Assembly: GCF_003334785.1 (NCBI RefSeq)
Contig: NZ_QOWV01000002.1
Strand: one strand, 5' to 3'
Length of the DNA stretch: 64,000 bases
Source of the DNA: Escherichia coli
GTDB taxonomy: Bacteria > Pseudomonadota > Gammaproteobacteria > Enterobacterales > Enterobacteriaceae
Position 1 is the first letter of the stretch. The number at the start of each line of letters is the position of its first letter. The translations under genes and the position numbers were made by a program. Below the pieces are notes generated by a model, which searched no databases, was not told the DNA's origin, and saw only the letters and a list, made by a program, of their open reading frames with translations. Shown in pieces: positions 32,355 to 50,908 of the stretch.

Positions 32355-32469
32355 CAGAAAACCCTCCGAGTGGTGTGTTTTTTTGCGACTACTAATCGCT
32401 TTTTTCGTGGTGGCTGAAATTTAGCCACCAATAGTAGGCACTTGTGATGAATATATTCACGATGAATTG

Positions 32470-32769
32470 TTAACCAGTCTTTTGACCGGAGTGGGGCGAC
32501 GTTGTTTCGTTTTGCCCAAAGTGTGCGAGAGCGGGCGCAATTTGCCCGGACTCAGGAGCGATCTGATTGGTCATGAACCATAAAGTGTATTTGGTGAATT
32601 GTGGGGTCTGCAGGATGTTCATCATGACATCTGTTGGAGGTGTTGAACGACCACTTTCATAGTAACTCAGCGTGCCATACGGAACCCCTGTTAAATCAGC
32701 AAGTTGTTGTCTGCTCAAATACTCTGATTTTCGCATTAAGACTATCTTCTCGCTTATCGTGTTTGACAT
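32470..32769 (-). CDS. C: P2 immunity repressor C
   Basis: 99 aa, HTH-containing (LSRQQLADLTGVPYGTLSYYESGRSTP); divergent from cox. Confidence 0.85.
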   Translation of the reverse strand: MSNTISEKIVLMRKSEYLSRQQLADLTGVPYGTLSYYESGRSTPPTDVMMNILQTPQFTKYTLWFMTNQIAPESGQIAPALAHFGQNETTSPHSGQKTG

Positions 32770-32883
32770 GGTGTTTAGATCTCAATAGTATTTAGTTTAG
32801 ATGTAGATTGTTTAGTGCTTGGATGTGGGCACTAAAAGGCATTATAAGACATTAAACGCAATTCATGAGGGCTAGAGGACGAC
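32770..32883. promoter_or_regulatory. C/cox divergent promoter-operator switch region
   Basis: Intergenic region between the divergent C and cox genes with direct repeats TTTAGAT at 32774-32780 and 32796-32802 plus further TTTAGT copies. Confidence 0.5.
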
Positions 32884-33030
32884 ATGAGCAAGCAAGTAAC
32901 ACTCATGACTGATGCGATTCCTTATCAGGAGTTCGCAAAACTAATAGGAAAATCGACATGAAGTGGTTTACTGAATTTGGCCACCTGAACAGAGGTGATA
33001 TGCTCACCTCAGAACAACACAGGTGCCATA

Positions 33031-34178
<1,148 letters not shown>

Positions 34179-34398
34179 CTCGGTGGCCAGTTTTTGTTGA
34201 CCACTTCAACAGGAGCGGTTCGTCGGATGATCGATAAAGGAAAGCTGCCTGTAATTGATATGACCGATCCACAATCAGCTTCAGGTCGTGCAGGTGAATA
34301 TTGGGTATACCTTCCGGCATGGAATAACGGACTAAAACTGGCTTATGAAAGCCGCCCTAAAGAGATTCGTGACGGCTGGTTGATGTGGTTAGGTCTCG

Positions 34399-34593
34399 GT
34401 GAACCACGTTAAGGAGAACCGTATGAATGAGCCTCGTTGTATTGCTCAGTTACTGCGTAACGAAAGCCCCAGGGCGATTGACTTCACCATCACCCACGGT
34501 AAGGGGCGTAAGGGAATCATTATCCGCACCAAAAAACAGAGTCCGTTAAAAAAGGCTCTGACCTTTCTGAAAAGCCGGAGGGTATGGAAATGA
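34399..34593 (+). CDS. small hypothetical ORF between cox and B (P2 orf78 position)
   Basis: 64-aa ORF overlapping the cox 3' end and the B start; no independent support. Confidence 0.3.
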   Translation: MNHVKENRMNEPRCIAQLLRNESPRAIDFTITHGKGRKGIIIRTKKQSPLKKALTFLKSRRVWK

Positions 34594-35090
34594 CAGTGAT
34601 GACGCTCAATCTCGTTGAAAAACAGCCAGCAGCTATGCGCCGGATAATTGGTAAGCATCTTGCCGTTCCTCGCTGGCAGGATACATGTGATTATTATAAT
34701 CAGATGATGGAGCGCGAACGGTTAACGGTTTGCTTCCATGCTCAGTTAAAACAGCGTCACGCAACGATGTGTTTTGAAGAAATGAACGACGTCGAACGTG
34801 AACGACTGGTATGTGCAATTGATGAATTGCGTGGGGCATTCTCAAAACGCCGTCAGGTTGGCGCAAGTGAGTATGCATATATTAGTTTTTTAACAGTCAG
34901 TCAGCGTCGTACTTTATTTATGCATGCCGGATTGACTGAAAAAGAATTCAACCAGCCATACTGGCGAATTAATGAAGAATCATGTTACTGGCGTGATGCT
35001 TTATTCCGTGCATTACGTGAATTATTCAGCCTGTTTGAGTATGCACCGACAATTCTGACGTCGGTAAAACCAGAGCAATATCTGCATTAA
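34584..35090 (+). CDS. B: P2 replication gene B protein (helicase-loader-like)
   Basis: ~166 aa ORF at the position of P2 B between cox and A. Confidence 0.75.
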   Translation: MEMTVMTLNLVEKQPAAMRRIIGKHLAVPRWQDTCDYYNQMMERERLTVCFHAQLKQRHATMCFEEMNDVERERLVCAIDELRGAFSKRRQVGASEYAYISFLTVSQRRTLFMHAGLTEKEFNQPYWRINEESCYWRDALFRALRELFSLFEYAPTILTSVKPEQYLH

Positions 35091-35153
35091 GTAATTAACC
35101 AGAGTTTTTAACGCACTTAATCGTGCGGGGCTTCTTTTTGCCTGGAGAAAGTC

Positions 35154-35378
35154 ATGCATACAGTTTCTGAAAATCAGTGCGGTAAATTCGCATTACTGCT
35201 GCAACAGGCCAGAACCGAAGCACAGGCCGACGCTGCGACGCGCTTTTCTTCTCATCTTGACGCCATGATTCGCCACATCACAAAGGCGGAGTTATCCCGA
35301 GTGGAGATAGTCGAGCTGCTCAGTCAGGAGTCGGAAAAATTTCACAATATCGGATTGTCTCGCGGGGAGGTGCTTTGA
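35154..35378 (+). CDS. hypothetical early protein (P2 orf80 position)
   Basis: 74-aa ORF in the early operon. Confidence 0.5.
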
Positions 35379-35680
35379 TGTCCTGTTCTCATTCAGTTGT
35401 ATTACTGAATAACGCCTTAAAAATCGCCGTTATGGAAAATGGCGATTTGTCTCTTATTCAACTTTGTCTTGATAAAGAAAAACGCGACATCACTGAATCT
35501 GTTATCGCGATTTATCAGAATGAATTAAACCTCCTGTCTGATGTGGTCAATTTACTTGTTAAACGCGCTGTATTCCACAAGCAAATTTCCTCCGTGGATG
35601 AACTGACAAAATTAACGACAGAACTTGCCAGTTATTGCGCTGATGTATCCAGGAAACTTAACGATAAAAGGAGCTGGTAA
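35375..35680 (+). CDS. hypothetical early protein (P2 orf81 position)
   Basis: 101-aa ORF, start overlaps the previous stop. Confidence 0.5.
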
Positions 35681-35904
35681 TGCCGGACAACGTAGATTTT
35701 ATTCAGGAACAACAGGCTGAATTACTGGAGCGCCAGATTAACGCGGCAAGGGTAAAACATTGCGGTGCTTCTGCGCTGGTTTGCGAAGAGTGTGACGCGC
35801 CAATACCTGCTGCCCGTCGTGCGGCTTACCCGTCAGCCACGCGTTGTGTTTCCTGTCAGTCAGTCTTTGAAGCAAAAAACAAACATTACCGGAGAACGGC
35901 ATGA
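35680..35904 (+). CDS. DksA/TraR-family C4 zinc-finger protein (P2 orf82 position)
   Basis: CEECDAPIPAARRAAYPSATRCVSCQ four-Cys motif. Confidence 0.6.
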   Translation: MPDNVDFIQEQQAELLERQINAARVKHCGASALVCEECDAPIPAARRAAYPSATRCVSCQSVFEAKNKHYRRTA

Positions 35905-36176
35905 GTATTCGTATTGAAATTGGCGAACGTTATGTCGTTACCAGTGACAGCTTTCAGTTTATTCTCCACGAGAAAAAGAGAGCGGAAAGCGGTAAAAACG
36001 CCGGTCAGGAATGGCTGGCGGTGGTTGGTTATTACCCGAAATTAAGCCAGCTCGTTTCCGGCCTGATGCATCACGATATTCTGACCGGAAGCGCAAAGTC
36101 TTTTGCTGATTTAAACGCGCAGGTTGAGCAACTCAGCAAGCGTTGTTCAGAGGCTTTTGGCTCATATGGCCGTTAA
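35901..36176 (+). CDS. hypothetical early protein (P2 orf83 position)
   Basis: 91-aa ORF overlapping the A start. Confidence 0.5.
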   Translation: MSIRIEIGERYVVTSDSFQFILHEKKRAESGKNAGQEWLAVVGYYPKLSQLVSGLMHHDILTGSAKSFADLNAQVEQLSKRCSEAFGSYGR

Positions 36177-38451
36177 AGCCTCCGGGCGTTTTGTCCCTCC
36201 GTCAGCATTTGCTGCAGGCACCGGTAAGGCGTTTACCGGTGCTTATGCATGGAACGCGCCACGCGAGGCTGTCGGGCGCGAAAGACCCCTTACACGTGAC
36301 GAGATGCGTCAGGTGCAAGGTGTTTTATCCACGATTAACCGCCTGCCTTACTTTTTGCGCTCGCTGTTTACGTCACGCTATGACTACATCCGGCGCAATA
36401 AAAGCCCGGTGCACGGGTTTTATTTCCTCACATCCACTTTTCAGCGTCGTTTATGGCCGCGCATTGAGCGTGTGAATCAGCGCCATGAAATGAACACCGA
36501 CGCGTCGAAGCTGTTTCTGGCTGAGCGTGACCACTATGCGCGCCTGCCGGGAATGAATGACAAGGAGCTGAAAAAGTTTGCCGCCCGTATCTCATCGCAG
36601 CTTTTCATGATGTATGAGGAACTCAGCGATGCCTGGGTGGATGCGCATGGCGAGAAAGAATCGCTGTTTACGGATGAGGCGCAGGCTCACCTCTATGGTC
36701 ATGTTGCTGGCGCTGCACGTGCTTTCAATATTTCCCCGCTTTACTGGAAAAAATACCGTAAAGGACAGATGACCACGAGGCAGGCATATTCTGCAATTGC
36801 CCGTCTGTTTAACGATGAGTGGTGGACTCATCAGCTTAAAGGCCAGCGTATGCGCTGGCATGAAGCGTTACTGATAGCTGTCGGGGAGGTCAATAAAGAC
36901 CGTTCTCCTTATGCCAGTAAACACGCCATTCGTGATGTGCGTGCGCGCCGCCAGGCAAATCTGGAATTTCTTAAATCGTGTGACCTTGAAAACAGGGAAA
37001 CCGGCGAGCGCATCGACCTTATCAGTAAGGTGATGGGCAGTATTTCTAATCCTGAAATTCGCCGGATGGAGCTGATGAACACCATTGCCGGTATTGAGCG
37101 TTACGCCGCCGCAGAGGGTGATGTGGGGATGTTTATCACGCTGACCGCGCCGTCAAAGTATCACCCGACACGTCAGGTCAGAAAAGGCGAAAGTAAAACC
37201 GTTCAGCTAAATTACGGCTGGAACGATGAGGCATTTAATCCAAAGGATGCGCAGCGTTATCTCTGCCGTATCTGGAGCCTGATGCGCACGGCATTCAAGG
37301 ATAATGACTTACAGGTCTACGGTTTGCGTGTCGTCGAGCCACACCACGACGGAACGCCGCACTGGCATATGATGCTTTTTTGTAATCCACGCCAGCGTAA
37401 CCAGATTATTGAAATCATGCGTCGCTACGCGCTCAAAGAGGATGGAGACGAAAGAGGAGCTGCGCGAAACCGTTTTCAGGCAAAACACCTTAACCGGGGC
37501 GGTGCTGCGGGGTATATCGCGAAATACATCTCAAAAAACATCGATGGCTATGCACTGGATGGTCAGCTCGATAACGACACCGGCAGGCCGCTGAAAGACA
37601 CAGCCGCGGCTGTTACCGCATGGGCGTCAACGTGGCGCATACCACAATTTAAAACGGTTGGCCTGCCGACAATGGGGGCTTACCGTGAACTACGCAAATT
37701 GCCCCGCGGCGTCAGCATTGCTGATGAGTTTGACGAGCGCGTCGAGGCTGCACGCGCCGCCGCAGACAGTGGTGATTTTGCGCTGTATATCAGCGCGCAG
37801 GGCGGGGCAAATGTCCCGCGCGATTGTCAGACTGTCAGGGTCGCCCGTAGTCCGTCGGATGACGTTAACGAGTACGAGGAAGAAGTCGAGAGAGTGGTCG
37901 GCATTTACGCGCCGCATCTCGGCGCGCGTCATATTCATATCACCAGAACGACGGACTGGCACATTGTGCCGAAAGTTCCGGTCGTTGAGCCTTTGACTTT
38001 AAAAAGCGGCATCGCCGCGCCTCGGAGTCCTGTCAATAACTGTGGAAAACTCACCGGTGGTGATACTTCGTTACCGGCTCCCACACCTTCTGAGCACGCC
38101 GCAGCAGTGCTTAATCTGGTTGATGACGGTGTTATCGAATGGAGTGACCCGGAGGTCGTGAGGGCGCTCAGAGGTGCATTAAAACACGGTCGGAGAACGC
38201 CAAGTCGTCAGCAAAGAAACGGAAGCCCGTTAAAACCACATGAAATTGCACCATCGGCCAGACTGACCCGGTCGGAAAGAATGCAAATTACCCGTATCCG
38301 CGTTGACCTTGCTCAGAACGGTATCAGGCCGCAGCGATGGGAGCTTGAGGCGCTGGCGCGTGGCGCGACCGTAAATTATGACGGGAAAAAATTCACGTAT
38401 CCGGTCGCTGATGAGTGGCCGGGATTCTCAACAGTAATGGAGTGGACATGA
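36166..38451 (+). CDS. A: P2 replication initiation protein A (rolling-circle nickase)
   Basis: 761 aa from ATG 36166, MAVKASGRFVPPSAFAAGTGKAFTGAYAW...; largest early-operon ORF. Confidence 0.9.
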   Translation: MAVKASGRFVPPSAFAAGTGKAFTGAYAWNAPREAVGRERPLTRDEMRQVQGVLSTINRLPYFLRSLFTSRYDYIRRNKSPVHGFYFLTSTFQRRLWPRIERVNQRHEMNTDASKLFLAERDHYARLPGMNDKELKKFAARISSQLFMMYEELSDAWVDAHGEKESLFTDEAQAHLYGHVAGAARAFNISPLYWKKYRKGQMTTRQAYSAIARLFNDEWWTHQLKGQRMRWHEALLIAVGEVNKDRSPYASKHAIRDVRARRQANLEFLKSCDLENRETGERIDLISKVMGSISNPEIRRMELMNTIAGIERYAAAEGDVGMFITLTAPSKYHPTRQVRKGESKTVQLNYGWNDEAFNPKDAQRYLCRIWSLMRTAFKDNDLQVYGLRVVEPHHDGTPHWHMMLFCNPRQRNQIIEIMRRYALKEDGDERGAARNRFQAKHLNRGGAAGYIAKYISKNIDGYALDGQLDNDTGRPLKDTAAAVTAWASTWRIPQFKTVGLPTMGAYRELRKLPRGVSIADEFDERVEAARAAADSGDFALYISAQGGANVPRDCQTVRVARSPSDDVNEYEEEVERVVGIYAPHLGARHIHITRTTDWHIVPKVPVVEPLTLKSGIAAPRSPVNNCGKLTGGDTSLPAPTPSEHAAAVLNLVDDGVIEWSDPEVVRALRGALKHGRRTPSRQQRNGSPLKPHEIAPSARLTRSERMQITRIRVDLAQNGIRPQRWELEALARGATVNYDGKKFTYPVADEWPGFSTVMEWT

Positions 38452-38777
38452 TGGCAAAAATTCACGAGGTAAAGCTGCACGCAAAATATTTCGACCTTGT
38501 ACTGGAAGGAAAGAAACGCGCAGAGTTTCGGAAAAAAGATCGTAATTATGAGCGCGGGGGCACGTTGATTTTGCATGAATGGGTGCAGGGTGTGTTTACG
38601 GGGCGAAAGGTTGAAGCCCGGATAACAGATGTTACTGACCTGTCAGACTGGCTGGAAGATTATGTCTTGCTGCACAGAATACTAGGTGAGATACTGCCGC
38701 TGACTGTCAAGCTGGCAGTATCCTCCACATTTTTTATAAATCTAAGGCGAAGAACGGTGGCAATATATTTGCTTTAA
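38451..38777 (+). CDS. small PUA/ASCH-like protein (P2 orf91 position)
   Basis: MAKIHEVKLHAKYFDLVLEGKKRAEFRKKDRNYERGGTLILHEW...; start overlaps the A stop; C-terminal end uncertain. Confidence 0.5.
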   Translation: MAKIHEVKLHAKYFDLVLEGKKRAEFRKKDRNYERGGTLILHEWVQGVFTGRKVEARITDVTDLSDWLEDYVLLHRILGEILPLTVKLAVSSTFFINLRRRTVAIYLL

Positions 38778-38815
38778 ATTGTAAATAAGCAAATTATTCT
38801 AAGCCACAAATGATA

Positions 38816-39577
38816 TCAATTGAGTATCGATTTTCGTTCGAATATAACCATAACGCCAAGCGTCAAATGTAAGTCATCTATATGTGATTCGTATTCATAT
38901 TGGTCAGCATCAGGAGGTAGTAAATGCTCTGCTGCTGTAAAAACATCAATTGTAACAGATATATCGTCTGGAATTTCTTCATTTAATTCGGATATGTATT
39001 TTTTATATTTGTTTTTTAATTTCCTTATCATGTCTTCCTTATGGTGGATTGTAGTGCAGTAATTTTTTTTAGTTGAATCATTGTATGAATGGAATGAACA
39101 GTTTAATGCTAGGCCAAGACTTGAATTTCCTGTAGGGCCTGTGTGTTTAAAGTATTCAAGATTTCTTCTTATGTCAGAAAATAAAAGACTTTTACAGGGG
39201 GCATTTCCTTTAACTTCTATTGCACATATTGGAATGTCGAAAAATGGTCTGCTGTCCAATATGGCAATATCAATTCTGCCTGATCTTGTTGTGTTTGTGT
39301 TTTTTCTGACAGTTTTTTTTGAGAATGTTTTTTGGGGGTCAGACCGTTTCGATAAAGGAACTGTTGCATTAATGAATTTATTTGTATGGTACTCAAATAT
39401 AACTTTGTAATCACCATGGCGAAAAGATTTTATTTCTAACAACGATAGACCTATAGATACGGTAGCTACATATTCAGTGTTTATTTTTGCACCAGACCTG
39501 AAATCCATTAAATAAGTTGCGTCGGCTGACTTTTTCATTCCATCTTTTACAGCTTTCACAATATCCATGTTATTCAT
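38816..39577 (-). CDS. tin: Tin-like protein (P2 T-even phage exclusion)
   Basis: 253-aa ORF in AT-rich DNA immediately downstream of old on the same strand, the position and size of P2 tin. Confidence 0.7.
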   Translation of the reverse strand: MNNMDIVKAVKDGMKKSADATYLMDFRSGAKINTEYVATVSIGLSLLEIKSFRHGDYKVIFEYHTNKFINATVPLSKRSDPQKTFSKKTVRKNTNTTRSGRIDIAILDSRPFFDIPICAIEVKGNAPCKSLLFSDIRRNLEYFKHTGPTGNSSLGLALNCSFHSYNDSTKKNYCTTIHHKEDMIRKLKNKYKKYISELNEEIPDDISVTIDVFTAAEHLLPPDADQYEYESHIDDLHLTLGVMVIFERKSILN

Positions 39578-39751
39578 ATCAACACCTTTTATATTCCAGA
39601 ATTATAAATCTTAATGATTGATTTGTTTGTGTGTTTAGGTTACTAGATTGACGTACTTATAGCACATTCTGATTTTGAAATCACCATCCTTGGGTAAAGC
39701 ACAGCCTATCACTATTGGTTTAGTACTGTGCTGTAATAGTATCAGATTAAG

Positions 39752-41512
39752 TTAAATCCATTTTATGAAATCTTCCATTTCATCATATTTTTTTATTACT
39801 GCTCTAACATCTTTGCTTTCATCACATAAACAATCTAAAAGACTATCCCATTCAGTTTGTTTTTTACCAAATCCATAAACAGCCTCTATATCACCGGATT
39901 TCCATATATAGATTCCGTTATCTTTCAATTTTTGATGTATTTCATGTATATGCTTTTGTGTTTTTTCATGGTTACATATTTTGATGAAGTCTTTGCTTGA
40001 AATGCTTTTGAATGACTCAAAAGTAGTAACTTTTGTATTTAAACTAAGCTCTCCTGAGTTGATTGATTCAATCAAAGCAGTCAATAGATTATCACATTCA
40101 GTACTAAGTAAGTCTTTATGCTCTGTTAATAGAATATTTGATAAGAAATCACAATCAGCTAGAATCCTTGTTTTTATGCCGATGGCATTGATGATTTGTG
40201 ACATCTTAAATAAACTACCCTTACCGTCAACGGCAACAATGCAGATTTTACTCGGGTTGAGTTCATGTCCGTTAATTTTTTTATAAAGTGCATATAGAAC
40301 GTTTGTCTCTGTTTTCCCTTCAACAAGCAAAACTTCTTCAGAAAATAAAAGGTATGATGAATTAGAAAGCGTGAATGCTGAGTGCAATTGCGGTGATGAA
40401 GATTTATATAATTCTTCGATTTTTTCAGATATAGTCTTCCTTGCTATGGTTCCATTAGAATCCTTACAAACCTGAATCGCATTTGCTGCATGCTTTGCAG
40501 AAAGCATACTGGCTGAGTGAGTTGATATTATAACCTGATACCCTGATTCACTTAATGTGACAAGTGATTCTCTGACAGAATTAATGGCTGAAGGGTGTAA
40601 ATATAACTCAGGTTCATCAATGAAAATCAAAGTGTTTGATTTTTTTGATTCGCTGTTTTCTTTTTTTATTTCGGCCAGGTATTGAATTAATGCCATTTGA
40701 ATGGAACGTTGTGTTCCGTGACCAAATCGGCTGATATCTCTCATTACCGGTTCATCTTCCCGAGACTCAAAAACTTTCAGAGTGCCGGATTTAAATATCT
40801 CATCTAATGTCGGTGTGGGAAAGTGTAACTTTACACTTACGTCGGGAAAAAATTGGTTTACTTTTTTATTTACGCCTGAGTCTATTTTATTAAGGCTTTC
40901 TAATCTGTTCTCACCGTTGTGAGAAAGATATTTACCTATTTCTGATATGTTTTTTGAAAATTTTTCTTCGTGTTCTTGTTTTATTTCAGAAACAATTGCG
41001 GAAAGTATCTTTCCTATTGTGGTCGTGTTTTTGCATTTTGTTGAGTCTTCGACAGCGTCAGACATTGCAGGGATATGAATTGGTTCCGGAAATATATTGG
41101 AGATTGCACCATCTATGCCGCCAGGGTTTTTCTTCCACGTGGTACCGTCATATACATCCAGACTTTTTTTGGCTTTTCCTGTTTCCTTATTAAATTCCTG
41201 TCTTCTTGCAAAGGTAAGAGTCCCGTCAATTATAAACGGAGCTATTTTTTGTTGATTCTCTTCTGTTAACAAAGACAGAGTATCATCTGTTATACCTTGA
41301 ATAACGCCTTCAACGGATACGGGGTGTGTAGGATCGTACACATCTGATTCTGAAATCAAAGAGCCATCTAACAGCCACTTAATTGCTAAGATAATATTTG
41401 ATTTTCCTGCGTTATTATAACCAACTAAAGCAGTGAAGGGGCGCAAAATAGCCGATGTTGACTTACAAGAACGAAAGTTGCTAATTGAAACTGAAGCAAG
41501 ACGTACAGTCAT
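39752..41512 (-). CDS. old: OLD-family nuclease (ABC-type ATPase plus Toprim domain)
   Basis: 586 aa; Walker A GYNNAGKSN, Walker B LIFIDEPELYLHP, C-terminal Toprim-like LLVEGKTE...AVDGKGS...ADCDF; AT-rich. Confidence 0.9.
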   Translation of the reverse strand: MTVRLASVSISNFRSCKSTSAILRPFTALVGYNNAGKSNIILAIKWLLDGSLISESDVYDPTHPVSVEGVIQGITDDTLSLLTEENQQKIAPFIIDGTLTFARRQEFNKETGKAKKSLDVYDGTTWKKNPGGIDGAISNIFPEPIHIPAMSDAVEDSTKCKNTTTIGKILSAIVSEIKQEHEEKFSKNISEIGKYLSHNGENRLESLNKIDSGVNKKVNQFFPDVSVKLHFPTPTLDEIFKSGTLKVFESREDEPVMRDISRFGHGTQRSIQMALIQYLAEIKKENSESKKSNTLIFIDEPELYLHPSAINSVRESLVTLSESGYQVIISTHSASMLSAKHAANAIQVCKDSNGTIARKTISEKIEELYKSSSPQLHSAFTLSNSSYLLFSEEVLLVEGKTETNVLYALYKKINGHELNPSKICIVAVDGKGSLFKMSQIINAIGIKTRILADCDFLSNILLTEHKDLLSTECDNLLTALIESINSGELSLNTKVTTFESFKSISSKDFIKICNHEKTQKHIHEIHQKLKDNGIYIWKSGDIEAVYGFGKKQTEWDSLLDCLCDESKDVRAVIKKYDEMEDFIKWI

Positions 41513-41706
41513 TATTTTTCCTTAAATGTGCTATTTGTATGCAATGAGTTCATGCGAAACGCTTTTTTACATTTTATAGTCGTTGCATTCAAGGGTGCAT
41601 GAGATTGCATTAAGGGAAACTGTGATATGGCTTGGCTTTTGACTGGAAATACTGATGGCTCATTAGTTTTATTAAGGTGCATTAAAACCGCCCCGTGAAG
41701 CGGGCG

Positions 41707-41725
41707 GGCGAGGCGGGGAAAGCAC
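41707..41725. other. cos cohesive-end sequence (19 nt) of the P2-type genome
   Basis: GGCGAGGCGGGGAAAGCAC in the GC-rich non-coding region between old and Q; matches the P2 cohesive end as I recall it. Confidence 0.6.
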
Positions 41726-41894
41726 TGCGCGCTGGCGGTGGTGCTGATTTTGTTTTTTCAGCGTCTGAGCGCGTCGTGAAGGCGCTTAGTCTGCCCGTTG
41801 AGGCGTTGGTGTGTCTGCGGGGTGTTTTGTGCGGTGGTGAGCGTGTGAGGGCGTGATGACGGGGTGTAAAAAAGCCGCCCGCAGGCGGCGATGT

Positions 41895-42929
41895 TCAGCC
41901 GTTGTCTGTGTCCAGTGAGTAGTTTTTAAAGCGGATGACCTCCTGACCGAGCCAGCCGTTTATTTCCCGAATCCTGTCCTGTAACGGGATAAGCTCATTG
42001 CGGACAAAGACCTTTGCCACTTTCTCAATATCACCCAGCGACCCGACGTTCTCCGGCTTGCCGCCCATCAACTGAAAGGGGATGCGGTGCGCGTCCAGCA
42101 GGTCAGCGGCGCTGGCTTTTTTGATATTAAAAAAATCGTCCTTCGTTGCCACTTCACTGAGCGGGATAATTTTAATGCCGTCAGCTTTCCCCTGCGGGGC
42201 ATAGAGAAACAGATTTTTAAAGTTGTTGCGGCCTTTTGACTTCACCATGTTTTCGCGAAGCATTTCGATATCGTTGCGATCCTGCACGGCATCGGTGACG
42301 TACATGATATATCCGGCATGAGCGCCGTTTTCGTAATACTTGCGGCGGAACAGCGTGGCCGACTCATTCAGCCAGGCAGAATTAAGGGCGCTGAGATATT
42401 CCGGCAGGCCGTACAGCTCCTGATTAATATCCGGCTCCAGCAGGTGAAACACGGAGCCGGGCGCGAAGGCTGTCGGCTCGTTGAAGGACGGCACCCACCA
42501 GTAAACATCCTCCTCCACACCACGGCGGGTATATTTTGCCGGTGAGGTTTCCAGTCTGATGACCTTACCGGTGGTGCTGTAACGCTTTTCCAGAAACGCA
42601 TTACCGAACACCAGAAAATCCAGCACAAAGCGGCTGAAATCCTGCTGGGAAAGCCACGGGTGCGGAATAAACGTTGAAGCCAGAATATTACGTTTGACGT
42701 AAATCGGTGAGCTGTGATGCACGGCAGCACGCAGGCTTTTTGCCAGACCGGTAAAGCTGACCGGTGGCTCATACCATCTGCCGTTACTGATGCACTCGAC
42801 GTAATCCAGAATGTCACGGCGGTCGAGTACCGGCACCGGCTCACCAAAGGTGAATGCCTCCATTTTTGGGGCACTGGCAGTCATTTTTTTTGCCGCAGGT
42901 TGCGGTGTTTTCCCTTTTTTCTTGCTCAT
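41895..42929 (-). CDS. Q: portal protein (P2 gpQ)
   Basis: 344-aa ORF at the gpQ position. Confidence 0.85.
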   Translation of the reverse strand: MSKKKGKTPQPAAKKMTASAPKMEAFTFGEPVPVLDRRDILDYVECISNGRWYEPPVSFTGLAKSLRAAVHHSSPIYVKRNILASTFIPHPWLSQQDFSRFVLDFLVFGNAFLEKRYSTTGKVIRLETSPAKYTRRGVEEDVYWWVPSFNEPTAFAPGSVFHLLEPDINQELYGLPEYLSALNSAWLNESATLFRRKYYENGAHAGYIMYVTDAVQDRNDIEMLRENMVKSKGRNNFKNLFLYAPQGKADGIKIIPLSEVATKDDFFNIKKASAADLLDAHRIPFQLMGGKPENVGSLGDIEKVAKVFVRNELIPLQDRIREINGWLGQEVIRFKNYSLDTDNG

Positions 42930-44701
42930 CAGTAAAACTCCAGAATGGTGGATGTCAGCGGGGTGCTGATACCGGCGGTGAGTGGCTCATTTAACAGGGC
43001 GTGCATGGTCGCCCAGGCGAGGTCGGCGTGGCTGGCTTCCTCGCTGCGGCTGGCCTCATAGGTGGCGCTGCGTCCGCTGCTGGTCATGGTCTTGCGGATA
43101 GCCATAAACGAGCTGGTGATGTCGGTGGCGCTGACGTCATATTCCAGACAGCCACGACGGATAACGTCTTTTGCCTTGAGCACCATTGCGGTTTTCATTT
43201 CCGGTGTGTAGCGGATATCGCGCGCGGCGGGATAGAACGAGCGCACGAGCTGGAACACGCCGACACCGAGGCCGGTGGCATCAATACCGATGTATTCGAC
43301 GTTGTATTTTTCGGTGAGTTTGCGGATGGATTCAGCCTGGGTGGCAAAGTCCATGCCTTTCCACTGGTGACGCTCAAGTATTCTGAATTTGCCACCGGCC
43401 ACCACCGGCGGTGCCAGCACCACGCATCCGGCGCTGTCGCCACGGTGTGACGGGTCGTAACCAATCCATACCGGGCGGGAGCCGAACGGATTGGCGGCAA
43501 ACGGCGCATAGTCTTCCCATTCTTCCAGCGTGTCGACCATGCAGCGTTGCAGCTCCTCGAACGGGAACACCGACGCCTTGTCGTCCACAAATTCACACAT
43601 GAACAGGTTTTTAAAATCGTCGGCGCTGTTTTCACGTTTGAGCTGCTCAATGTCGAACAGCGTGCAGCCGCCTTTCAGGGCATCCTCAATGGTGACAATC
43701 TGCCGCCACTGGCCGTCCGCACAGAGAAGCCCACCGGCAAGGGCGTTATGACTGACGTCGATTTCCACGCGTTCAGCGGCGCTGGCGCGTCCCCGGTTAA
43801 ACAGTTCACCCGACCAGAACGGGTAGGCGTCGTGCGCCAGCGTGGACGGGGTGGAGAAATAGGTCGAGCGCAGGTGACTCTGTGAGGCCATACCTGATGC
43901 CACCTTACGCAGTACCTGAAAATTCGGGATCCAGAAAATCTCATCGACGTACAGGTCGCCGTTATGGCTCTGTGCGGTGTTGGAGTTGGTGCCGAGAAAA
44001 ATCAGTTTTGCACCGTTATTGCCCAGGACAATCGGGTCACCGGTCAGGTCAACGTCAACCAGCCGGGCAAAGGCGATGATGTATTCGCGGAACACATACG
44101 CCTGCGTTTTACTGGCCGACAGAAAAATCTGGTTATGACCGGTTTTCAGGGCGCGCAGCAGCGCCTCGCGGGAAAAATAAAACGTCGCGCCAATCTGGCG
44201 GGATTTCAGGATATCGCGGATGCGGTGCTCAAGCCCGGCGCGATACCAGTGCAACTGATATTCGAAAGACTGCTCAAAGAAAATCTGCTCCAGCTTTTCG
44301 ATGGCCTCGTCACTGAAAAAATTCTTTTTCGGTTTGCGGCGTTCGCCTTTGTTGCGGTTAGCGACGTTCGGATTAAGGTCTGCCTCGTTGCCGGTCTGGC
44401 TGTAACGGTTGACCCGTGCCAGTCGTTCAATCTGGCGTCCCAGCAGGTCAATTTCCTTGAAGTCCCCGCCGGTTTTCTGCGGTTTGATGATGAGCTGGGT
44501 CAGCCGCGCTTCCAGACTCATTTCGACACGGCTGATGGGAGCAACGCTGTCCCAGCCGTCGCGCTGTTTCCAGCTCTGCACCGTCGGGCGTTTCATCTGC
44601 AACATGGCGGCAATCTGCGGCACGGAAAACCCCTGCCAGTACAGCAGCGCCGCCTGACGACGCGGGTCGTGTAAAAGAGTGGTGTCTGTGGTGATGGTCA
44701 T
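42929..44701 (-). CDS. P: terminase large (ATPase) subunit (P2 gpP)
   Basis: MTITTDTTLLHDPRRQAALLYWQGFSVPQIAAML..., ~590 aa. Confidence 0.85.
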   Translation of the reverse strand: MTITTDTTLLHDPRRQAALLYWQGFSVPQIAAMLQMKRPTVQSWKQRDGWDSVAPISRVEMSLEARLTQLIIKPQKTGGDFKEIDLLGRQIERLARVNRYSQTGNEADLNPNVANRNKGERRKPKKNFFSDEAIEKLEQIFFEQSFEYQLHWYRAGLEHRIRDILKSRQIGATFYFSREALLRALKTGHNQIFLSASKTQAYVFREYIIAFARLVDVDLTGDPIVLGNNGAKLIFLGTNSNTAQSHNGDLYVDEIFWIPNFQVLRKVASGMASQSHLRSTYFSTPSTLAHDAYPFWSGELFNRGRASAAERVEIDVSHNALAGGLLCADGQWRQIVTIEDALKGGCTLFDIEQLKRENSADDFKNLFMCEFVDDKASVFPFEELQRCMVDTLEEWEDYAPFAANPFGSRPVWIGYDPSHRGDSAGCVVLAPPVVAGGKFRILERHQWKGMDFATQAESIRKLTEKYNVEYIGIDATGLGVGVFQLVRSFYPAARDIRYTPEMKTAMVLKAKDVIRRGCLEYDVSATDITSSFMAIRKTMTSSGRSATYEASRSEEASHADLAWATMHALLNEPLTAGISTPLTSTILEFY

Positions 44702-44874
44702 GAATACCTCGCCGTGATGAATACACGGCAAGGCTACTGAGTCGCGCCCCGCGATTCGCTAAGGTGCTGTTGTGTCAGTGATAAGCCATCCGGGACTGAT
44801 GGCGGAGGATGCGCATCGTCGGGAAACTGATGCCGACATGTGACTCCTCTAATCACTATTCAGGACTCCTGACA

Positions 44875-45729
44875 ATGGCAAAAAAAGTCTCAAAATTCTT
44901 TCGTATCGGCGTTGAGGGTGACACCTGTGACGGGCGTGTCATCAGTGCGCAGGATATTCAGGAAATGGCCGAAACCTTTGACCCGCGAGTCTATGGTTGC
45001 CGCATTAACCTGGAACATCTGCGCGGCATCCTGCCTGACGGTATTTTTAAGCGTTATGGCGATGTGGTCGAACTGAAGGCCGAAAAGATTGACGATGATT
45101 CGGTGCTGAAAGGCAAATGGGCGCTGTTTGCGAAAATCACCCCGACCGATGACCTTATCGCGATGAACAAGGCCGCGCAGAAGGTCTACACCTCAATGGA
45201 AATTCAGCCGAACTTTGCCAATACCGGCAAATGTTATCTGGTGGGTCTGGCCGTCACCGATGACCCGGCAAGCCTCGGCACGGAATACCTGGAATTCTGC
45301 CGCACGGCAAAACACAACCCTCTGAACCGCTTCAAATTAAGCCCTGAAAACCTGATTTCAGTGGCAACGCCTGTTGAGCTGGAATTTGAAGACCTGCCTG
45401 AAACCGTGTTCACCGCCCTGACCGAAAAGGTGAAGTCCATTTTTGGCCGCAAACAGGCCAGCGATGACGCCCGTCTGAATGACGTGCATGAAGCGGTGAC
45501 CGCTGTTGCTGAACATGTGCAGGAAAAACTGAGCGCCACTGAGCAGCGCCTCGCTGAGATGGAAACCGCTTTTTCCGCACTTAAGCAGGATGTGACTGAC
45601 AGGGCGGATGAAACCAGCCAGGCATTCACCCGCCTGAAAAACAGTCTCGACCACACCGAAAGTCTGACCCAGCAGCGCCGCAGCAAGGCCACCGGTGGTG
45701 GCGGTGACGCCCTGATGACGAACTGCTGA
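44875..45729 (+). CDS. O: capsid scaffolding protein (P2 gpO)
   Basis: MAKKVSKFFRIGVEGDTCDGRVISAQDIQEMAETFDPRVYG..., 284 aa, divergent from Q-P. Confidence 0.85.
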   Translation: MAKKVSKFFRIGVEGDTCDGRVISAQDIQEMAETFDPRVYGCRINLEHLRGILPDGIFKRYGDVVELKAEKIDDDSVLKGKWALFAKITPTDDLIAMNKAAQKVYTSMEIQPNFANTGKCYLVGLAVTDDPASLGTEYLEFCRTAKHNPLNRFKLSPENLISVATPVELEFEDLPETVFTALTEKVKSIFGRKQASDDARLNDVHEAVTAVAEHVQEKLSATEQRLAEMETAFSALKQDVTDRADETSQAFTRLKNSLDHTESLTQQRRSKATGGGGDALMTNC

Positions 45730-45787
45730 CCGGCGTCAGTCAGTCCGGGAAAACCTTCACGATTAACCCTTAATTTCAGGAAAAACT

Positions 45788-46861
45788 ATGCGCCAGGAAA
45801 CCCGCTTTAAATTTAATGCCTACCTGTCCCGTGTTGCCGAACTGAACGGCATCGACGCCGGTGATGTGTCGAAAAAATTCACCGTTGAACCGTCGGTCAC
45901 CCAGACCCTGATGAACACCATGCAGGAGTCCTCTGACTTTCTGACCCGCATCAACATTGTGCCGGTCAGCGAAATGAAAGGGGAAAAAATTGGCATCGGT
46001 GTCACCGGCTCCATCGCCAGCACCACCGACACCGCCGGTGGCACCGAGCGTCAGCCGAAGGACTTCTCGAAGCTGGCGTCAAACAAGTACGAATGCGACC
46101 AGATTAACTTCGATTTTTATATCCGCTACAAAACGCTGGACCTGTGGGCGCGTTATCAGGATTTCCAGCTCCGTGTCCGTAACGCCATTATCAAACGCCA
46201 GTCCCTTGATTTAATCATGGCCGGTTTTAACGGCGTGAGGCGTGCCGAAACCTCTGACCGCAGCAGCAATCCGATGCTGCAGGATGTGGCGGTCGGCTGG
46301 CTGCAGAAATACCGCAATGAAGCCCCGGCGCGCGTGATGAGCAAGGTCACTGACGAGGAAGGGCACACCACCTCTGAGGTTATCCGCGTGGGTAAGGGCG
46401 GTGATTATGCCAGCCTTGACGCACTGGTGATGGATGCGACCAACAACCTGATTGAGCCGTGGTATCAGGAAGACCCTGACCTTGTGGTGATTGTGGGACG
46501 TCAGCTACTGGCGGACAAGTATTTTCCCATCGTCAACAAGGAGCAGGACAACAGCGAAATGCTGGCCGCTGACGTCATCATCAGCCAGAAACGCATCGGT
46601 AACCTGCCGGCGGTACGCGTCCCGTACTTCCCGGCGGATGCGATGCTCATCACAAAGCTGGAAAACCTGTCCATCTACTACATGGATGACAGCCATCGCC
46701 GCGTGATTGAGGAAAACCCGAAACTCGACCGCGTGGAGAACTACGAGTCAATGAACATTGATTACGTGGTGGAAGACTACGCCGCCGGTTGTCTGGTGGA
46801 AAAAATTAAGGTCGGTGATTTCTCCACACTGGCTAAAGCGACCGCAGAGCCGGGAGCGTAA
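45788..46861 (+). CDS. N: major capsid protein (P2 gpN)
   Basis: 357-aa ORF following O. Confidence 0.85.
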   Translation: MRQETRFKFNAYLSRVAELNGIDAGDVSKKFTVEPSVTQTLMNTMQESSDFLTRINIVPVSEMKGEKIGIGVTGSIASTTDTAGGTERQPKDFSKLASNKYECDQINFDFYIRYKTLDLWARYQDFQLRVRNAIIKRQSLDLIMAGFNGVRRAETSDRSSNPMLQDVAVGWLQKYRNEAPARVMSKVTDEEGHTTSEVIRVGKGGDYASLDALVMDATNNLIEPWYQEDPDLVVIVGRQLLADKYFPIVNKEQDNSEMLAADVIISQKRIGNLPAVRVPYFPADAMLITKLENLSIYYMDDSHRRVIEENPKLDRVENYESMNIDYVVEDYAAGCLVEKIKVGDFSTLAKATAEPGA

Positions 46862-46864
46862 CCG

Positions 46865-47608
46865 ATGACGAGTCCCGCACAGCGCCACATGATGCGGGTC
46901 TCGGCAGCGATGACCGCGCAGCGGGAAGCCGCCCCGCTGCGACATGCAACTGTCTATGAGCAGATGCTGGTTAAGCTCGCCGCAGACCAGCGCACACTGA
47001 AAGCGATTTATTCAAAAGAGCTGAAGGCCGCGAAAAAACGCGAACTGCTGCCGTTCTGGTTGCCGTGGGTGAACGGCGTGCTGGAGCAGGGCAAAGGTGC
47101 ACAGGATGACATTCTGATGACGGTCATGCTGTGGCGTCTGGATACCGGCGATATTGCCGGTGCGCTGGAGATTGCCCGTTATGCCCTGAAATACGGTCTG
47201 ACCATGCCGGGTAAACACCGCCGCACCCCGCCGTACATGTTCACCGAGGAGGTGGCACTTGCGGCCATGCGCGCCCACGCTGCCGGTGAGTCTGTGGATC
47301 CCCGCCTGCTGACGGACACCCTCGAACTGACCGCCACGGCTGACATGCCTGATGAAGTGCGCGCAAAGCTGCACAAAATCACCGGTCTGTTTCTGCGTGA
47401 CGCTGGTGATGCCGCCGGTGCGCTGGCTCACCTGCAGCGTGCGACACAGCTCGACTGTCAGGCAGGCGTCAAAAAAGAGATTGAACGACTGGAGCGGGAG
47501 CTGAAACCGAAGCCGGAGCCGCAACCAAAAGCGGCCACCCGCGCCCCGCGTAAGACCCGGAGCGTGACACCGGCAAAACGTGGACGCCCGAAAAAGAAAG
47601 CCAGTTAA
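46865..47608 (+). CDS. M: terminase small/endonuclease subunit (P2 gpM)
   Basis: 247-aa ORF with very basic C-terminal tail (KPKPEPQPKAATRAPRKTRSVTPAKRGRPKKKAS). Confidence 0.8.
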   Translation: MTSPAQRHMMRVSAAMTAQREAAPLRHATVYEQMLVKLAADQRTLKAIYSKELKAAKKRELLPFWLPWVNGVLEQGKGAQDDILMTVMLWRLDTGDIAGALEIARYALKYGLTMPGKHRRTPPYMFTEEVALAAMRAHAAGESVDPRLLTDTLELTATADMPDEVRAKLHKITGLFLRDAGDAAGALAHLQRATQLDCQAGVKKEIERLERELKPKPEPQPKAATRAPRKTRSVTPAKRGRPKKKAS

Positions 47609-47647
47609 CAACCGAATGCGCCCCGCGCCAGGGCGGCACGCCGGTCA

Positions 47648-48076
47648 GTGAGGGTGACCGGACTTATTGAATCGCTGTCACCGTCAGGGCGTCGGCGACT
47701 GAGCGCCGAACTGGCGAAACGTCTGCGGCAGAGTCAGCAGCGCCGGGTGATGGCACAGAAAGCCCCGGACGGCACACCCTACGCACCACGCCAGCAGCAG
47801 AGCGCCAGAAAAAAGACCGATCGCGTTAAGCGAAAAATGTTTGCGAAACTTATCACCAGTCGTTTTTTGCATATCCGCGCCAGCCCGGAACAGGCATCAA
47901 TGGAGTTTTTCGGCGGGAAGTCACCGAAAATCGCCAGCGTGCATCAGTTCGGTCTGTCGGAAGAAACCCGGAAAGACGGTAAGAAAATTGATTATCCGGC
48001 GCGTCCTCTGCTCGGCTTTACCGGTGAGGATGTGCAGATGATTGAAGAGATTATCCTGGCTCACCTTGAGCGTTAG
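47648..48076 (+). CDS. late morphogenesis protein; by position gpL (head completion), but the C-terminal HQFG...PARP motif resembles the gpS/virion-morphogenesis family
   Basis: 142-aa ORF starting at GTG 47648 with no ATG in frame upstream; identity as L versus S cannot be settled without a search. Confidence 0.55.
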   Translation: MRVTGLIESLSPSGRRRLSAELAKRLRQSQQRRVMAQKAPDGTPYAPRQQQSARKKTDRVKRKMFAKLITSRFLHIRASPEQASMEFFGGKSPKIASVHQFGLSEETRKDGKKIDYPARPLLGFTGEDVQMIEEIILAHLER

Positions 48077-48106
48077 TTTTATCCAGGCAGAGGCTGATGC
48101 GCAATT

Positions 48107-48140
48107 AAACATTGAGCGCCGTGCTGGTCGCTCAATGTTT
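48107..48140. other. perfect 12-bp inverted repeat (hairpin) at the junction between GC-rich late genes and the AT-rich cargo
   Basis: AAACATTGAGCG - 10 nt - CGCTCAATGTTT; no adjacent T-tract on either strand. Confidence 0.5.
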
Positions 48141-48146
48141 AGAGGT

Positions 48147-48932
48147 TTATGAGTGGTTTTTATTTGATGCTTTGTATTCTAAAACCTTCTTATTGGCGTA
48201 AAAGAATTTTGTATATGACAGGAATATAAGCAGACCTGAAATGAAATAGATTAGGGATATTATTAATAATGTTTTTCTGTGGCTGTTATTATCTTTAATC
48301 TCCTGACTTAACCATTCGGAGTCCTCCTCGTTTAGCTGTAAGAGCTTATTGCAGGCGATCTCAGGAAGTGTGTCTTTTATAAATACGTTTTGCAGACTCT
48401 TGCAATCGGCAAGGCTATAAGTTTTATTAAATTCAACTGTTTTATTTTTGAAGGATAAAAGAACTTTGTCACTATAAACATAGTACATCATATTTTTATA
48501 TGGTATACCTATGGCATCCCTTACTATAGCGGATTGTTCATTGTGTATGTAACATGCGAAGATAATATAAAGAATTCCGGCCAGGACTGCACTCATTGTT
48601 TTTGTGATGCATGGCGGTTCTGTTATGTCTCCCCAGAAGCGAGTAAGGAAAAAATCCGATGTTTTTAGTTTTCCATCAATCAGCCCCTGCTGTATCATTC
48701 TCACATCTTCGATGCCTGATACATTGATTCCGTTAAGTGTTTTAAATAGTTGAATATCGCGCCACTCGCGGTCCAGTCTTTTTAATTTTTTGTCTGAATA
48801 TCCAAATTTGAAATAATGTGCAATAAGCCTCATAAGGTTACTTTTACCAAAGCTAAAAAATGCTAATACTGCAAAGACCAAAAGATACAAAACGATTAGC
48901 TCCCACACATTAGTCACATTATAGCTGACCAT
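48147..48932 (-). CDS. hypothetical membrane protein (261 aa, 3 predicted transmembrane helices), foreign AT-rich cargo of unknown function
   Basis: ORF with strong Shine-Dalgarno (AAGGAGAG 7 nt before ATG); hydrophobic segments WELIVLYLLVFAVLAFFSF, MSAVLAGILYIIFACYI, KTLLIISLIYFISGLLIFLSY; AT-rich codon usage unlike the flanking phage genes. Confidence 0.6.
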   Translation of the reverse strand: MVSYNVTNVWELIVLYLLVFAVLAFFSFGKSNLMRLIAHYFKFGYSDKKLKRLDREWRDIQLFKTLNGINVSGIEDVRMIQQGLIDGKLKTSDFFLTRFWGDITEPPCITKTMSAVLAGILYIIFACYIHNEQSAIVRDAIGIPYKNMMYYVYSDKVLLSFKNKTVEFNKTYSLADCKSLQNVFIKDTLPEIACNKLLQLNEEDSEWLSQEIKDNNSHRKTLLIISLIYFISGLLIFLSYTKFFYANKKVLEYKASNKNHS

Positions 48933-49015
48933 TACGCTCTCCTTGAATGTTGTCTGGTGGTTCTACAAATGAATCCAGATAGCATAACTTTTATATATTG
49001 TGCAATCTCACATGC

Positions 49016-49651
49016 ATGAACACTCTCGCAAATATTCAGGAACTCGCGCGCGCACTGCGCAACATGATCCGCACCGGCATTATCGTTGAAACCGACCTTA
49101 ACGCCGGTCGCTGCCGTGTGCAGACCGGCGGCATGTGCACCGACTGGCTTCAGTGGCTGACCCATCGCGCCGGACGTTCGCGCACATGGTGGGCACCTTC
49201 CGTGGGGGAACAGGTGCTGATTCTGGCCGTGGGCGGTGAACTCGACACGGCGTTCGTTCTGCCGGGGATTTATTCCGGCGATAACCCTGCGCCGTCTGCG
49301 TCGGCTGATGCCCTGCATATCCGTTTCCCTGACGGGGCGGTGATTGAGTATGAGCCCGAAACCAGTGCACTCACGGTAAGCGGAATTAAAACGGCCAGCG
49401 TGACGGCTTCTGATTCTGTTACTGCCACGGTGCCGGTGGTCACGGTGAAAGCATCAACCCGCGTCACCCTGGACACACCAGAGGTGGTCTGCACCAACAG
49501 GCTGATTACCGGCACGCTGGAAGTGCAGAAGGGCGGGACGATGCGCGGCAACATTGAACACACCGGCGGTGAACTCTCATCAAACGGTAAGGTACTGCAT
49601 ACCCATAAACACCCCGGCGACAGCGGCGGCACAACCGGGAGTCCTCTATGA
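49016..49651 (+). CDS. V: baseplate spike/assembly protein (P2 gpV)
   Basis: MNTLANIQELARALRNMIRTGIIVETDLNAGRCRVQTGG..., 211 aa. Confidence 0.85.
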   Translation: MNTLANIQELARALRNMIRTGIIVETDLNAGRCRVQTGGMCTDWLQWLTHRAGRSRTWWAPSVGEQVLILAVGGELDTAFVLPGIYSGDNPAPSASADALHIRFPDGAVIEYEPETSALTVSGIKTASVTASDSVTATVPVVTVKASTRVTLDTPEVVCTNRLITGTLEVQKGGTMRGNIEHTGGELSSNGKVLHTHKHPGDSGGTTGSPL

Positions 49652-49995
49652 CAGCGCGTTATCTCGGAATGAATCGCAGTGATGGCCTGACTGTCACTGA
49701 CCTTGAGCATATCAGCCAGAGTATCGGCGATATCCTGCGCACACCGGTCGGCTCACGGGTGATGCGTCGTGATTACGGCTCGTTGCTGGCGTCAATGATT
49801 GACCAGCCGCAGACTCCGGCGCTTGAGTTGCAGATTAAGGTCGCCTGTTACATGGCAGTGCTGAAATGGGAACCCCGCGTCACCCTGTCATCCGTCACCA
49901 CGGCGCGCAGTTTTGACGGGCGAATGACGGTCACGTTAACCGGTCAGCACAACGACACCGGCCAGCCACTTTCGTTAACCATCCCTGTGAGTTGA
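49648..49995 (+). CDS. W: baseplate wedge protein (P2 gpW, GPW/gp25 family)
   Basis: 115 aa, overlaps the V stop. Confidence 0.85.
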   Translation: MTARYLGMNRSDGLTVTDLEHISQSIGDILRTPVGSRVMRRDYGSLLASMIDQPQTPALELQIKVACYMAVLKWEPRVTLSSVTTARSFDGRMTVTLTGQHNDTGQPLSLTIPVS

Positions 49996-49999
49996 AACC

Positions 50000-50908
50000 A
50001 TGCCGATTATCGACCTGAACCAGCTACCCGCACCGGATGTGGTCGAGGAGCTGGACTTTGAAACCATTCTTGCCGAACGCAAGGCGACACTGATTTCCCT
50101 TTACCCGGAAGACCAGCAGGAGGCGGTCGCCCGTACCCTGACGCTGGAATCCGAACCTCTCGTCAAACTGCTGGAGGAAAATGCTTATCGTGAGCTTATC
50201 TGGCGTCAGCGTGTGAATGAGGCCGCACGGGCGGTAATGCTGGCCTGTGCCGCCGGTAATGACCTTGATGTGATTGGTGCCAATTACAACACCACGCGCC
50301 TGATTATCACCCCGGCAGATGATTCGACCCTCCCGCCGACACCGGCAGTGATGGAATCTGACACCGATTATCGTCTGCGTATTCAGCAGGCGTTTGAGGG
50401 CTTAAGCGTCGCCGGGTCGGTGGGTGCCTATCAGTATCATGGTCGCAGTGCCGACGGGCGTGTCGCAGATATCTCTGTCACCAGTCCGTCTCCGGCCTGC
50501 GTCACTATCTCCGTGCTGTCACGTGAAAATAACGGTGTGGCATCCGAAGACCTGCTGGCGGTGGTGCGTAACGCCCTTAATGGCGAGGACGTCAGGCCGG
50601 TGGCCGACCGCGTGACCGTGCAGTCTGCCGCCATTGTTGAATACCAGATAAACGCCACGCTTTACCTTTACCCTGGTCCCGAAAGCGAACCCATCCGCGC
50701 CGCCGCCGTGAAAAAACTGGAAGCGTATATCACGGCACAGCACCGGCTGGGGCGTGACATCCGTCTGTCTGCCATTTATGCCGCTTTGCATGTGGAAGGC
50801 GTGCAGCGTGTCGAGCTGGCCGCACCACTGGCCGACATTGTGCTCAACAGTACGCAGGCGTCTTTCTGCACCGAATACAGCGTCGTGACCGGAGGCTCGG
50901 ATGAGTGA
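50000..50908 (+). CDS. J: baseplate protein (P2 gpJ)
   Basis: 302-aa ORF after W. Confidence 0.85.
   Translation: MPIIDLNQLPAPDVVEELDFETILAERKATLISLYPEDQQEAVARTLTLESEPLVKLLEENAYRELIWRQRVNEAARAVMLACAAGNDLDVIGANYNTTRLIITPADDSTLPPTPAVMESDTDYRLRIQQAFEGLSVAGSVGAYQYHGRSADGRVADISVTSPSPACVTISVLSRENNGVASEDLLAVVRNALNGEDVRPVADRVTVQSAAIVEYQINATLYLYPGPESEPIRAAAVKKLEAYITAQHRLGRDIRLSAIYAALHVEGVQRVELAAPLADIVLNSTQASFCTEYSVVTGGSDE

Follow-up and report, generated by a model that had tools for sequence, protein, structure and literature searches.

The window (the whole stretch of 64,000 nucleotides of Escherichia coli DNA that was analysed) contains a 30-kb P2 prophage whose left flank is E. coli chromosome. 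When the P2 genome (AF063097) was compared with the window by blastn, five collinear blocks were obtained, 94.8–99.5% identical to P2, which cover P2 nt 1–5949, 8943–12629 and 17572–33593. The prophage differs from P2 in three respects: a deletion that runs from the M-L spacer into S, an IS3-family element in cox, and a replacement of H/G/Z-fun. The insertion in cox was recognized as a 1.24-kb gap in the collinearity with P2, which holds IS3 transposase ORFs, and the element is 99.6% identical to annotated ISEc52-family copies carried by plasmids. In place of H/G/Z-fun, window 51337–54824 has a short H gene of 378 aa, genes for tail-fibre assembly that face both ways, a fibre tip with a Collar domain and a serine invertase of 199 aa. 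The replaced segment resembles a Mu/P1-type invertible host-range segment lodged inside a P2 prophage, and the same H-replacement/invertase module was also observed in three of the loci described below (L007, L142 and L005).

The feature under study is a 142-aa open reading frame on the plus strand, which runs from a GTG at 47648 to a TAG at 48074–48076 and is flanked by gene M and by a gene carried by the minus strand (the coordinates of all features are collected in the table). M and the ORF share one reading frame: the preceding in-frame stop is the TAA of M itself (47606–47608), and reading of the sequence showed no ATG, GTG or TTG among the 13 codons that separate this TAA from the GTG. 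The first-pass annotation had described a frame with a GTG start and no in-frame ATG upstream, located between M and a cargo gene, and this is exactly what we found, except that the so-called cargo gene is P2 orf30 in its normal place and not an insertion linked to the deletion; in P2, orf30 is non-essential. M and everything from the stop codon of S onward, namely the terminator homologue, orf30, the pV region and V, are intact. A simple terminator scan did not flag the terminator homologue, which is recognized from the P2 annotation and the collinear alignment.

Table. Features of the P2 prophage and of the deletion junction, in window coordinates.
Feature	Coordinates	Strand	Description and evidence
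P2 prophage, attL to attR	31235..61615		beside trhP/yegQ; 95–99.5% identity to P2 AF063097; blastn
IS3-family element (ISEc52-like) in cox	32960..34210	+	ends approximate
Gene M, terminase small subunit	46865..47608	+	intact, 247 aa; phrog_74 E=9e-106; collinear with P2 M
Kept first half of the P2 M-L spacer	47609..47654	+	P2 nt 5901–5946; has GTG 47648; alignment
Inverted repeat of 7 bp made by the junction	47641..47661		CCGGTCA-GTGAGGG-TGACCGG; GTG start in the loop
S' ORF	47648..48076	+	M-R-V then gpS residues 12–150; PF05069, TIGR01635, phrog_26, BLASTP
Deletion junction	47655..47657		TGA microhomology; spacer P2 5947–5949 / S P2 8946–8948
O-operon terminator homologue	48108..48142	+	P2 9397–9433; stem aaacattgagcg...cgctcaatgttt; P2 annotation and collinear alignment
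P2 orf30 homologue	48147..48932	-	between S and V as normal; phrog_2407 E=2e-141; P2 annotation
Gene V, baseplate spike, first of the next late operon	49016..49651	+	PHROG matches; P2 collinearity; 211-aa gene call

The first-pass annotation had hesitated between two identities for the ORF: the head-completion protein gpL, by reason of its position, and a gpS-like protein, on the basis of the motifs HQFG, DYPARPLLGF and IEEII, all of which are present in the translated ORF. It had proposed a profile search (PF05926 versus PF05069) and a pairwise alignment with both P2 proteins, and both were run. The Pfam search of the ORF gave a single match, Phage_tail_S (PF05069, E=5e-42, 143.7 bits), which spans ORF residues 6–141 and positions 13–148 of the 148-position model, and it gave no match to GPL (PF05926). 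The ORF also matched the NCBIfam profile TIGR01635 (tail_comp_S; 109.4 bits for a cut-off of 37.65; profile positions 10–143 of 144) and, in PHROGs, phrog_26 ('tail completion or Neck1 protein', E=2.7e-51). In BLASTP it is identical to P2 gpS at 136/141 positions (96%), over gpS residues 10–150, whereas P2 gpL yielded no alignment, even at E≤100; the 139 S codons that are kept differ from P2 by four residues. A Pfam match of this strength shows that the ORF is not a chance reading frame, and the profile matches, the identity to P2 gpS and the lack of alignment with gpL together identify it as S, not L. The downstream synteny (terminator, orf30, pV, V) provides an independent identification: it is exactly that of P2 gene S, so that the argument from position, which had pointed to gpL, fails.

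By these comparisons, the ORF is the 3' 93% of the P2 late gene S, which codes for a tail-completion ('virion morphogenesis') protein, with its N-terminus lost; we refer to it as S'. The gpS protein is among the tail completion proteins that have been studied experimentally, and its loss results in a tail–head joining defect (PMC11099176, Table 1). Compared with P2 gpS (UniProt P36934), S' matches the same profiles and has the same downstream neighbours, but it lacks residues 1–11 and the ATG that overlaps R, starts with M-R-V from a GTG, and is deprived of its partner R. Phage Mu gpG belongs to the same Pfam family and has the C-terminal motifs found in S'; it is, however, only a distant relative, and the element in the window is a P2 prophage, not a Mu-like one. 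The identity of the gene is in itself already known, as NCBI holds a protein identical to the ORF product (WP_114476274.1) and names it 'phage virion morphogenesis protein'. Among solved structures, none is sequence-related to the ORF product.

The alignment with P2 also defines the deletion. P2 nt 1–5949 correspond to window 41707–47657, and P2 nt 8943–12629 to window 47652–51337: the M-L spacer (P2 nt about 5949) is joined to codon 11/12 of S (P2 nt 8946), and 2,999 bp of P2 are missing, which comprise the second half of this spacer, the head-completion gene L, the tail gene X, the lysis cassette in its entirety (Y, K, lysA, lysB, lysC), the tail-completion gene R and codons 1–11 of S. At the base level, the spacer sequence ...CAGTGACGGTGA/ATCACC... 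is joined to the S sequence ...GACCGGCTGA/CCGGACT..., and the TGA at window 47655–47657 constitutes the sole exact bases common to spacer and S at the junction. S has lost its own ATG along with its first 11 codons because the deletion runs from the M-L spacer into S. The GTG at 47648 belongs to the spacer and lies in frame two codons ahead of the junction; the start codon of S' is thus spacer-derived and only fortuitously in frame. On this alignment, the rearrangement history is a single 3-kb deletion, which begins in the M-L spacer and ends within S. The first-pass annotation had envisaged two histories. The loss of L through R, which it associated with gpS, is borne out, but not the clean junction with M, as the deletion ends inside the M-L spacer and inside S; the loss of X through S, which it associated with gpL, did not hold, the ORF being S and L itself being deleted. 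The junction also creates a perfect inverted repeat (CCGGTCA-N7-TGACCGG), the stem of which is present in the fold of the minus-strand DNA. In P2 without the deletion, CCGGTCAG (nt 5933) and CTGACCGG (nt 8945) are inverted relative to each other and separated by 3 kb.

We therefore favor, with a probability of about 0.9, the view that the ORF is the gpS remnant of a P2 prophage, left by one illegitimate deletion of 2,999 bp; no evidence contradicting the gpS identity or the deletion map was found. It could be argued instead that the ORF is a complete natural variant of S, endowed with a different N-terminus and a GTG start, and that no deletion took place. Indeed, NCBI labels both the ORF and a 140-aa version present in E. 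coli IAL7250 as an ordinary 'phage virion morphogenesis protein'. Yet the P2 M-L spacer accounts, base for base, for the first 7–10 nt of the ORF and for all that lies upstream, the homology to S begins only at codon 11/12, R and eight other genes preceding S are gone, and a native 5' end was found in 120/120 S genes sampled from IMG/VR, which makes a natural variant very improbable. The ORF could also be the head-completion gene L, the deletion having then taken X through S: its location straight after M speaks for this reading, and nothing else does, for position is all that it shares with P2 gpL (PF05926), to which it shows no sequence similarity. Pfam gives Phage_tail_S only, BLASTP does not align the ORF with P2 gpL, and at the DNA level the ORF is P2 S, the identity to S and to downstream P2 being 95–99%; the identification as L is ruled out for all practical purposes.

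Is S' still a working gene? Its native start, which in P2 overlaps the end of R, is gone. An imperfect Shine-Dalgarno-like sequence, AGGGCGG, is located 10 nt 5' of the GTG at 47648, and a second GTG, at 47654, is directly abutted by GAGG and is the start chosen by the NCBI pipeline in IAL7250. The missing residues 1–11 are covered by both family profiles and show moderate conservation, L11 being present in at least 90% of 20 homologues; S' accordingly falls short of a full-length Phage_tail_S domain, its match starting at position 13/148 in Pfam and 10/144 in TIGRFAM. As to the P2-type gene context, the downstream part (terminator and V operon) is present and R, upstream, is deleted. S' still lies within the region covered by the O-operon transcript, from M to the operon terminator. 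With its native start lost and a weak, badly spaced Shine-Dalgarno-like sequence in its place, S' would be poorly translated, and with its conserved N-terminal segment gone, the product would be inactive. From its sequence, we infer that S' is a weakly translated, probably non-functional relic. What runs counter to this reading is that S' is open over 142 codons, shows only four residue changes with respect to P2 and is treated as intact by NCBI; moreover, the GTG in the loop of the junction hairpin could be accessible.

A different explanation for the open frame would be that S' is expressed and useful, either as a dominant-negative protein acting against superinfecting P2-like phages or as a subunit provided to a helper phage. 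The ORF is unbroken and its product shares 96% identity with P2 gpS, the ORF sits in a transcribed late operon 5' of the kept terminator, and elsewhere S from residue 12 on is fused in frame to many N-terminal partners (see below). However, the context for ribosome binding is poor, the conserved N-terminal segment is absent, and P2 late operons are silent in the absence of Ogr and replication. In addition, the in-frame fusions came from a protein search, which is blind to out-of-frame events, and an ORF that is open after a recent deletion needs no selection. A useful S' hence strikes us as unlikely, and we retain the view that it is a probable relic.

The essential late gene set of the prophage is incomplete (L, X, Y, K and R are gone and S is 5'-truncated) and cox is interrupted. 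A P2 prophage devoid of holin, endolysin, L, X, R and an intact cox gene does not lyse its host, produce infectious particles or excise. Since cox is broken by the IS, the prophage should be excision-defective, and its gene content indicates a grounded, defective element, presumably unable to lyse the cell, to complete heads and tails, or to excise.

We then searched for the same junction elsewhere. The M-spacer/S junction was found in one of 5,426 complete E. coli genomes, that of IAL7250 (L002), at the same trhP chromosomal site, in a remnant from which W through D are missing as well. It was also found in an IMG/VR contig (L005), which lacks orf30 and has a deletion from V to the invertase. 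That another E. coli has this junction, and has it at the same chromosomal site, suggests that the deletion was inherited rather than recent, descent from one event being the simplest reading. The three carriers (window, IAL7250 and L005) differ in the presence of orf30 and in the base at window 47651, beside the junction, which is G or C, so it is also possible that the same event recurred at a favoured site. IAL7250 further contains a parDE toxin-antitoxin pair between trhP and yegP (L002 13758–14539), absent from the window at 63212–63234. In E. coli JNE23-001 (L003, NZ_AP045064.1, 4459–5196), an independent deletion extends from inside L to just before R; it removes X and the lysis cassette and leaves R and S intact.

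The P2 remnant of IAL7250 therefore shares with the window its chromosomal site, an identical M-spacer/S junction and a progressive decay by deletions. In E. coli K-12, the cryptic P2 remnant ogrK/yegZ, beside yegQ, lies at this same chromosomal site and has likewise decayed by deletions. Compared with the IAL7250 and K-12 remnants, the prophage of the window is much more complete: it lacks only the L–R block and bears an IS in cox. The phage is a known one and this deletion derivative new, and the site is one where P2 remnants were known before.

The S-side end of the deletion turned out to be recurrent: at least 18 distinct deletions in P2-like prophages of E. coli and Salmonella, most of them found via protein searches that show in-frame events only, end at the same site of S, GGCTGACCGG (P2 AF063097 nt 8943–8953, window 47652–47661; loci L002, L005, L007–L012, L018 and L139–L147). 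Their left ends are scattered over 16 kb and lie in cox, A, Q, P (four sites), O, M, the M-L spacer, L, X, Y (two sites), K (two sites) and lysA. Searching 5.8 billion proteins with P2 gpS gave 14 clusters, a count that is not readable as a frequency, whose members are at least 96% identical to gpS from residue 10–12 on and carry different N-terminal partners: Cox, gene A, ORFs antisense to Q and P, M, L, X, Y (two sites), K and lysA. No fusion starting at S residues 13–40 was found in this search. Further junctions were traced from other, 5'-shortened S proteins of the same 90% cluster. The junctions include one between the interior of Q and S (L007 and four other loci), one between the 3' end of O and S (L010), and one between the interior of K and S (Salmonella locus L018). 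The DNA sequence was checked for nine junction types, on contigs as long as 660 kb; seven of these types occur in NCBI assemblies, and one more junction came from a metagenome scan that is independent of ORF calls. The gpS protein search listed no large cluster of full-length 150-aa gpS, whereas the neighbouring gpR has clusters with thousands of members; the way in which representatives are chosen probably accounts for this.

The position of the S-side end was compared at the nucleotide level. In 10 of about 18 junctions the identity to S starts at T8946; it starts at C8945 in three, at G8944, G8943 and G8947 in one each, and is ambiguous in two. For the 14 events considered (without the tenth T8946 case), the observed starts were 9/3/1/1, to be compared with 10.5/2.6/0.7/0.2 expected from chance leftward extension. 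This spread is the one expected if the S-side end is always the bond C8945/T8946, to which chance matches on the left are added. The microhomology amounts to 0–7 nt (mean about 2.7) and always extends rightward from T8946; the window junction, with its TGA, is one such T8946-anchored event.

Other features were noted as well. An E. fergusonii prophage has a one-base deletion in the CC doublet at the S site. In L145 (Logan ERR13744123_65, 1–1500), which bears a Y/S junction, a second deletion joins the interior of P to L, with loss of O, N and M, so that several deletions have accumulated in this element. In the Q/S remnant L007 (7486–9484), two genes, coding for an AAA_15/AAA_21 ATPase and a 190-aa protein, occupy the position of P2 old/tin; this module may be a defence system in a known P2 hot spot. 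Finally, left endpoints recurred within S, after ...SRFLH and after ...IEEI, two each (P0085, P0087, P0017 and P0035).

Deletions ending at the S site are rare. P2-like prophages are present in about 30% of E. coli genomes (1,606/5,426), and the R-S boundary was intact in 1,475 of 1,609 matching records; the Q/S junction (J2) was absent from the 5,426 complete E. coli genomes. The scans of IMG/VR and of metagenomes for extra junctions provided one locus each, and all S genes of the IMG/VR sample mentioned above were native at their 5' end. As a control, the search was carried out with gpR. It revealed a smaller cluster of right endpoints, at R residues 28–31 (P2 nt 8541–8553), made of four events with four different left partners (proteins P0168, P0198, P0207 and P0226). 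Since R also has a right-endpoint cluster, sequence-specific hot spots may be a general feature of the region.

A number of causes for the S breakpoint were considered and rejected. Assembly chimeras are not at issue, as at least seven junction types are found in NCBI assemblies, among them a complete genome as well as contigs of 75–660 kb. Dispersed repeats were sought by local alignment of the S 5' region with the left partners, and the scores were within background. The S site forms no unusual hairpin or cruciform (DNA folds at z about -1), and Chi-dependent protection of the right-hand end does not apply, P2 having zero Chi sites in either orientation. With a gyrase cleavage consensus, the S site scored 11/13, but so do, or better, 318 P2 positions, and the R site reached only 10; the score does not discriminate. 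A quasi-site for an invertase of the Cin/Hin type was suggested by a left half-site that looks similar by eye; the crossovers, however, are not centred on one dinucleotide and several carriers have no invertase. As for a pseudo-origin of P2 gpA, TGACCGGACT agrees with the ori motif, taken as its reverse complement, at 9/12 positions, a score for which about 26 matches are expected per genome, and the nick would be misplaced; the resemblance serves as no more than a lead.

A possible alternative to a random illegitimate event is a site-specific process that would make a DNA end at the S bond C8945/T8946, this end being then joined upstream through its terminal 0–7 nt; the end could come from a nascent strand that is arrested and then switches template, or from a site-specific nick. 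The at least 18 junctions with a common S-side end and varied left partners argue for such a process, as do the ten junctions that start exactly at T8946, the others fitting chance leftward extension, the microhomology that runs rightward from T8946 every time, and the zero fusions at S residues 13–40. On the other hand, no enzyme or structure was found to account for it, given the unexceptional hairpin, Chi and gyrase results, and the likeness to the ori motif is within chance; the smaller R cluster suggests that hot spots set by sequence context are perhaps general; and most events come from protein searches. On balance, we give a site-specific process of this kind nearly even odds. A microhomology anchored at the terminus agrees with a nascent strand that stops once T8946 has been copied and then switches template, or with a site-specific nick; generic end joining fits less well, because its microhomology could be internal. 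Michel and Ehrlich reportedly described illegitimate deletions with one fixed end at the nick sites of rolling-circle origins, in M13 and pC194. These deletions resemble those of the S site in that one end is fixed to the nucleotide and the other variable, with little or no homology; the known P2 ori nick, by contrast, is located within gene A and resembles the S site only loosely in sequence. We know of no nicking enzyme or origin at the S site.

We tentatively propose, as a hypothesis whose chances we put well short of even, that the S gene of P2-like phages holds a fragile site that is precise to the nucleotide, GGC/TGACCGG (nt 8945/8946), where a DNA end repeatedly arises, as an arrested nascent 3' end or a nick, and is joined upstream via its terminal 0–7 nt. 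The hot spot may be new: the literature that we searched contains no report of a breakpoint hot spot in S, although older P2 genetics papers may describe it. For annotation, the practical consequence is that the S' gene, intact according to NCBI, should carry the flag '5'-truncated'. More broadly, how prophages get disarmed and domesticated is an open topic, and the hot spot could matter as a testable handle on illegitimate deletion in vivo. If the proposal is correct, one-sided deletions of 1.4 to about 16 kb, which remove lysis and morphogenesis genes, would originate at this site, and the decay of a very common prophage family would be channelled via one defined molecular event instead of proceeding by random deletion.
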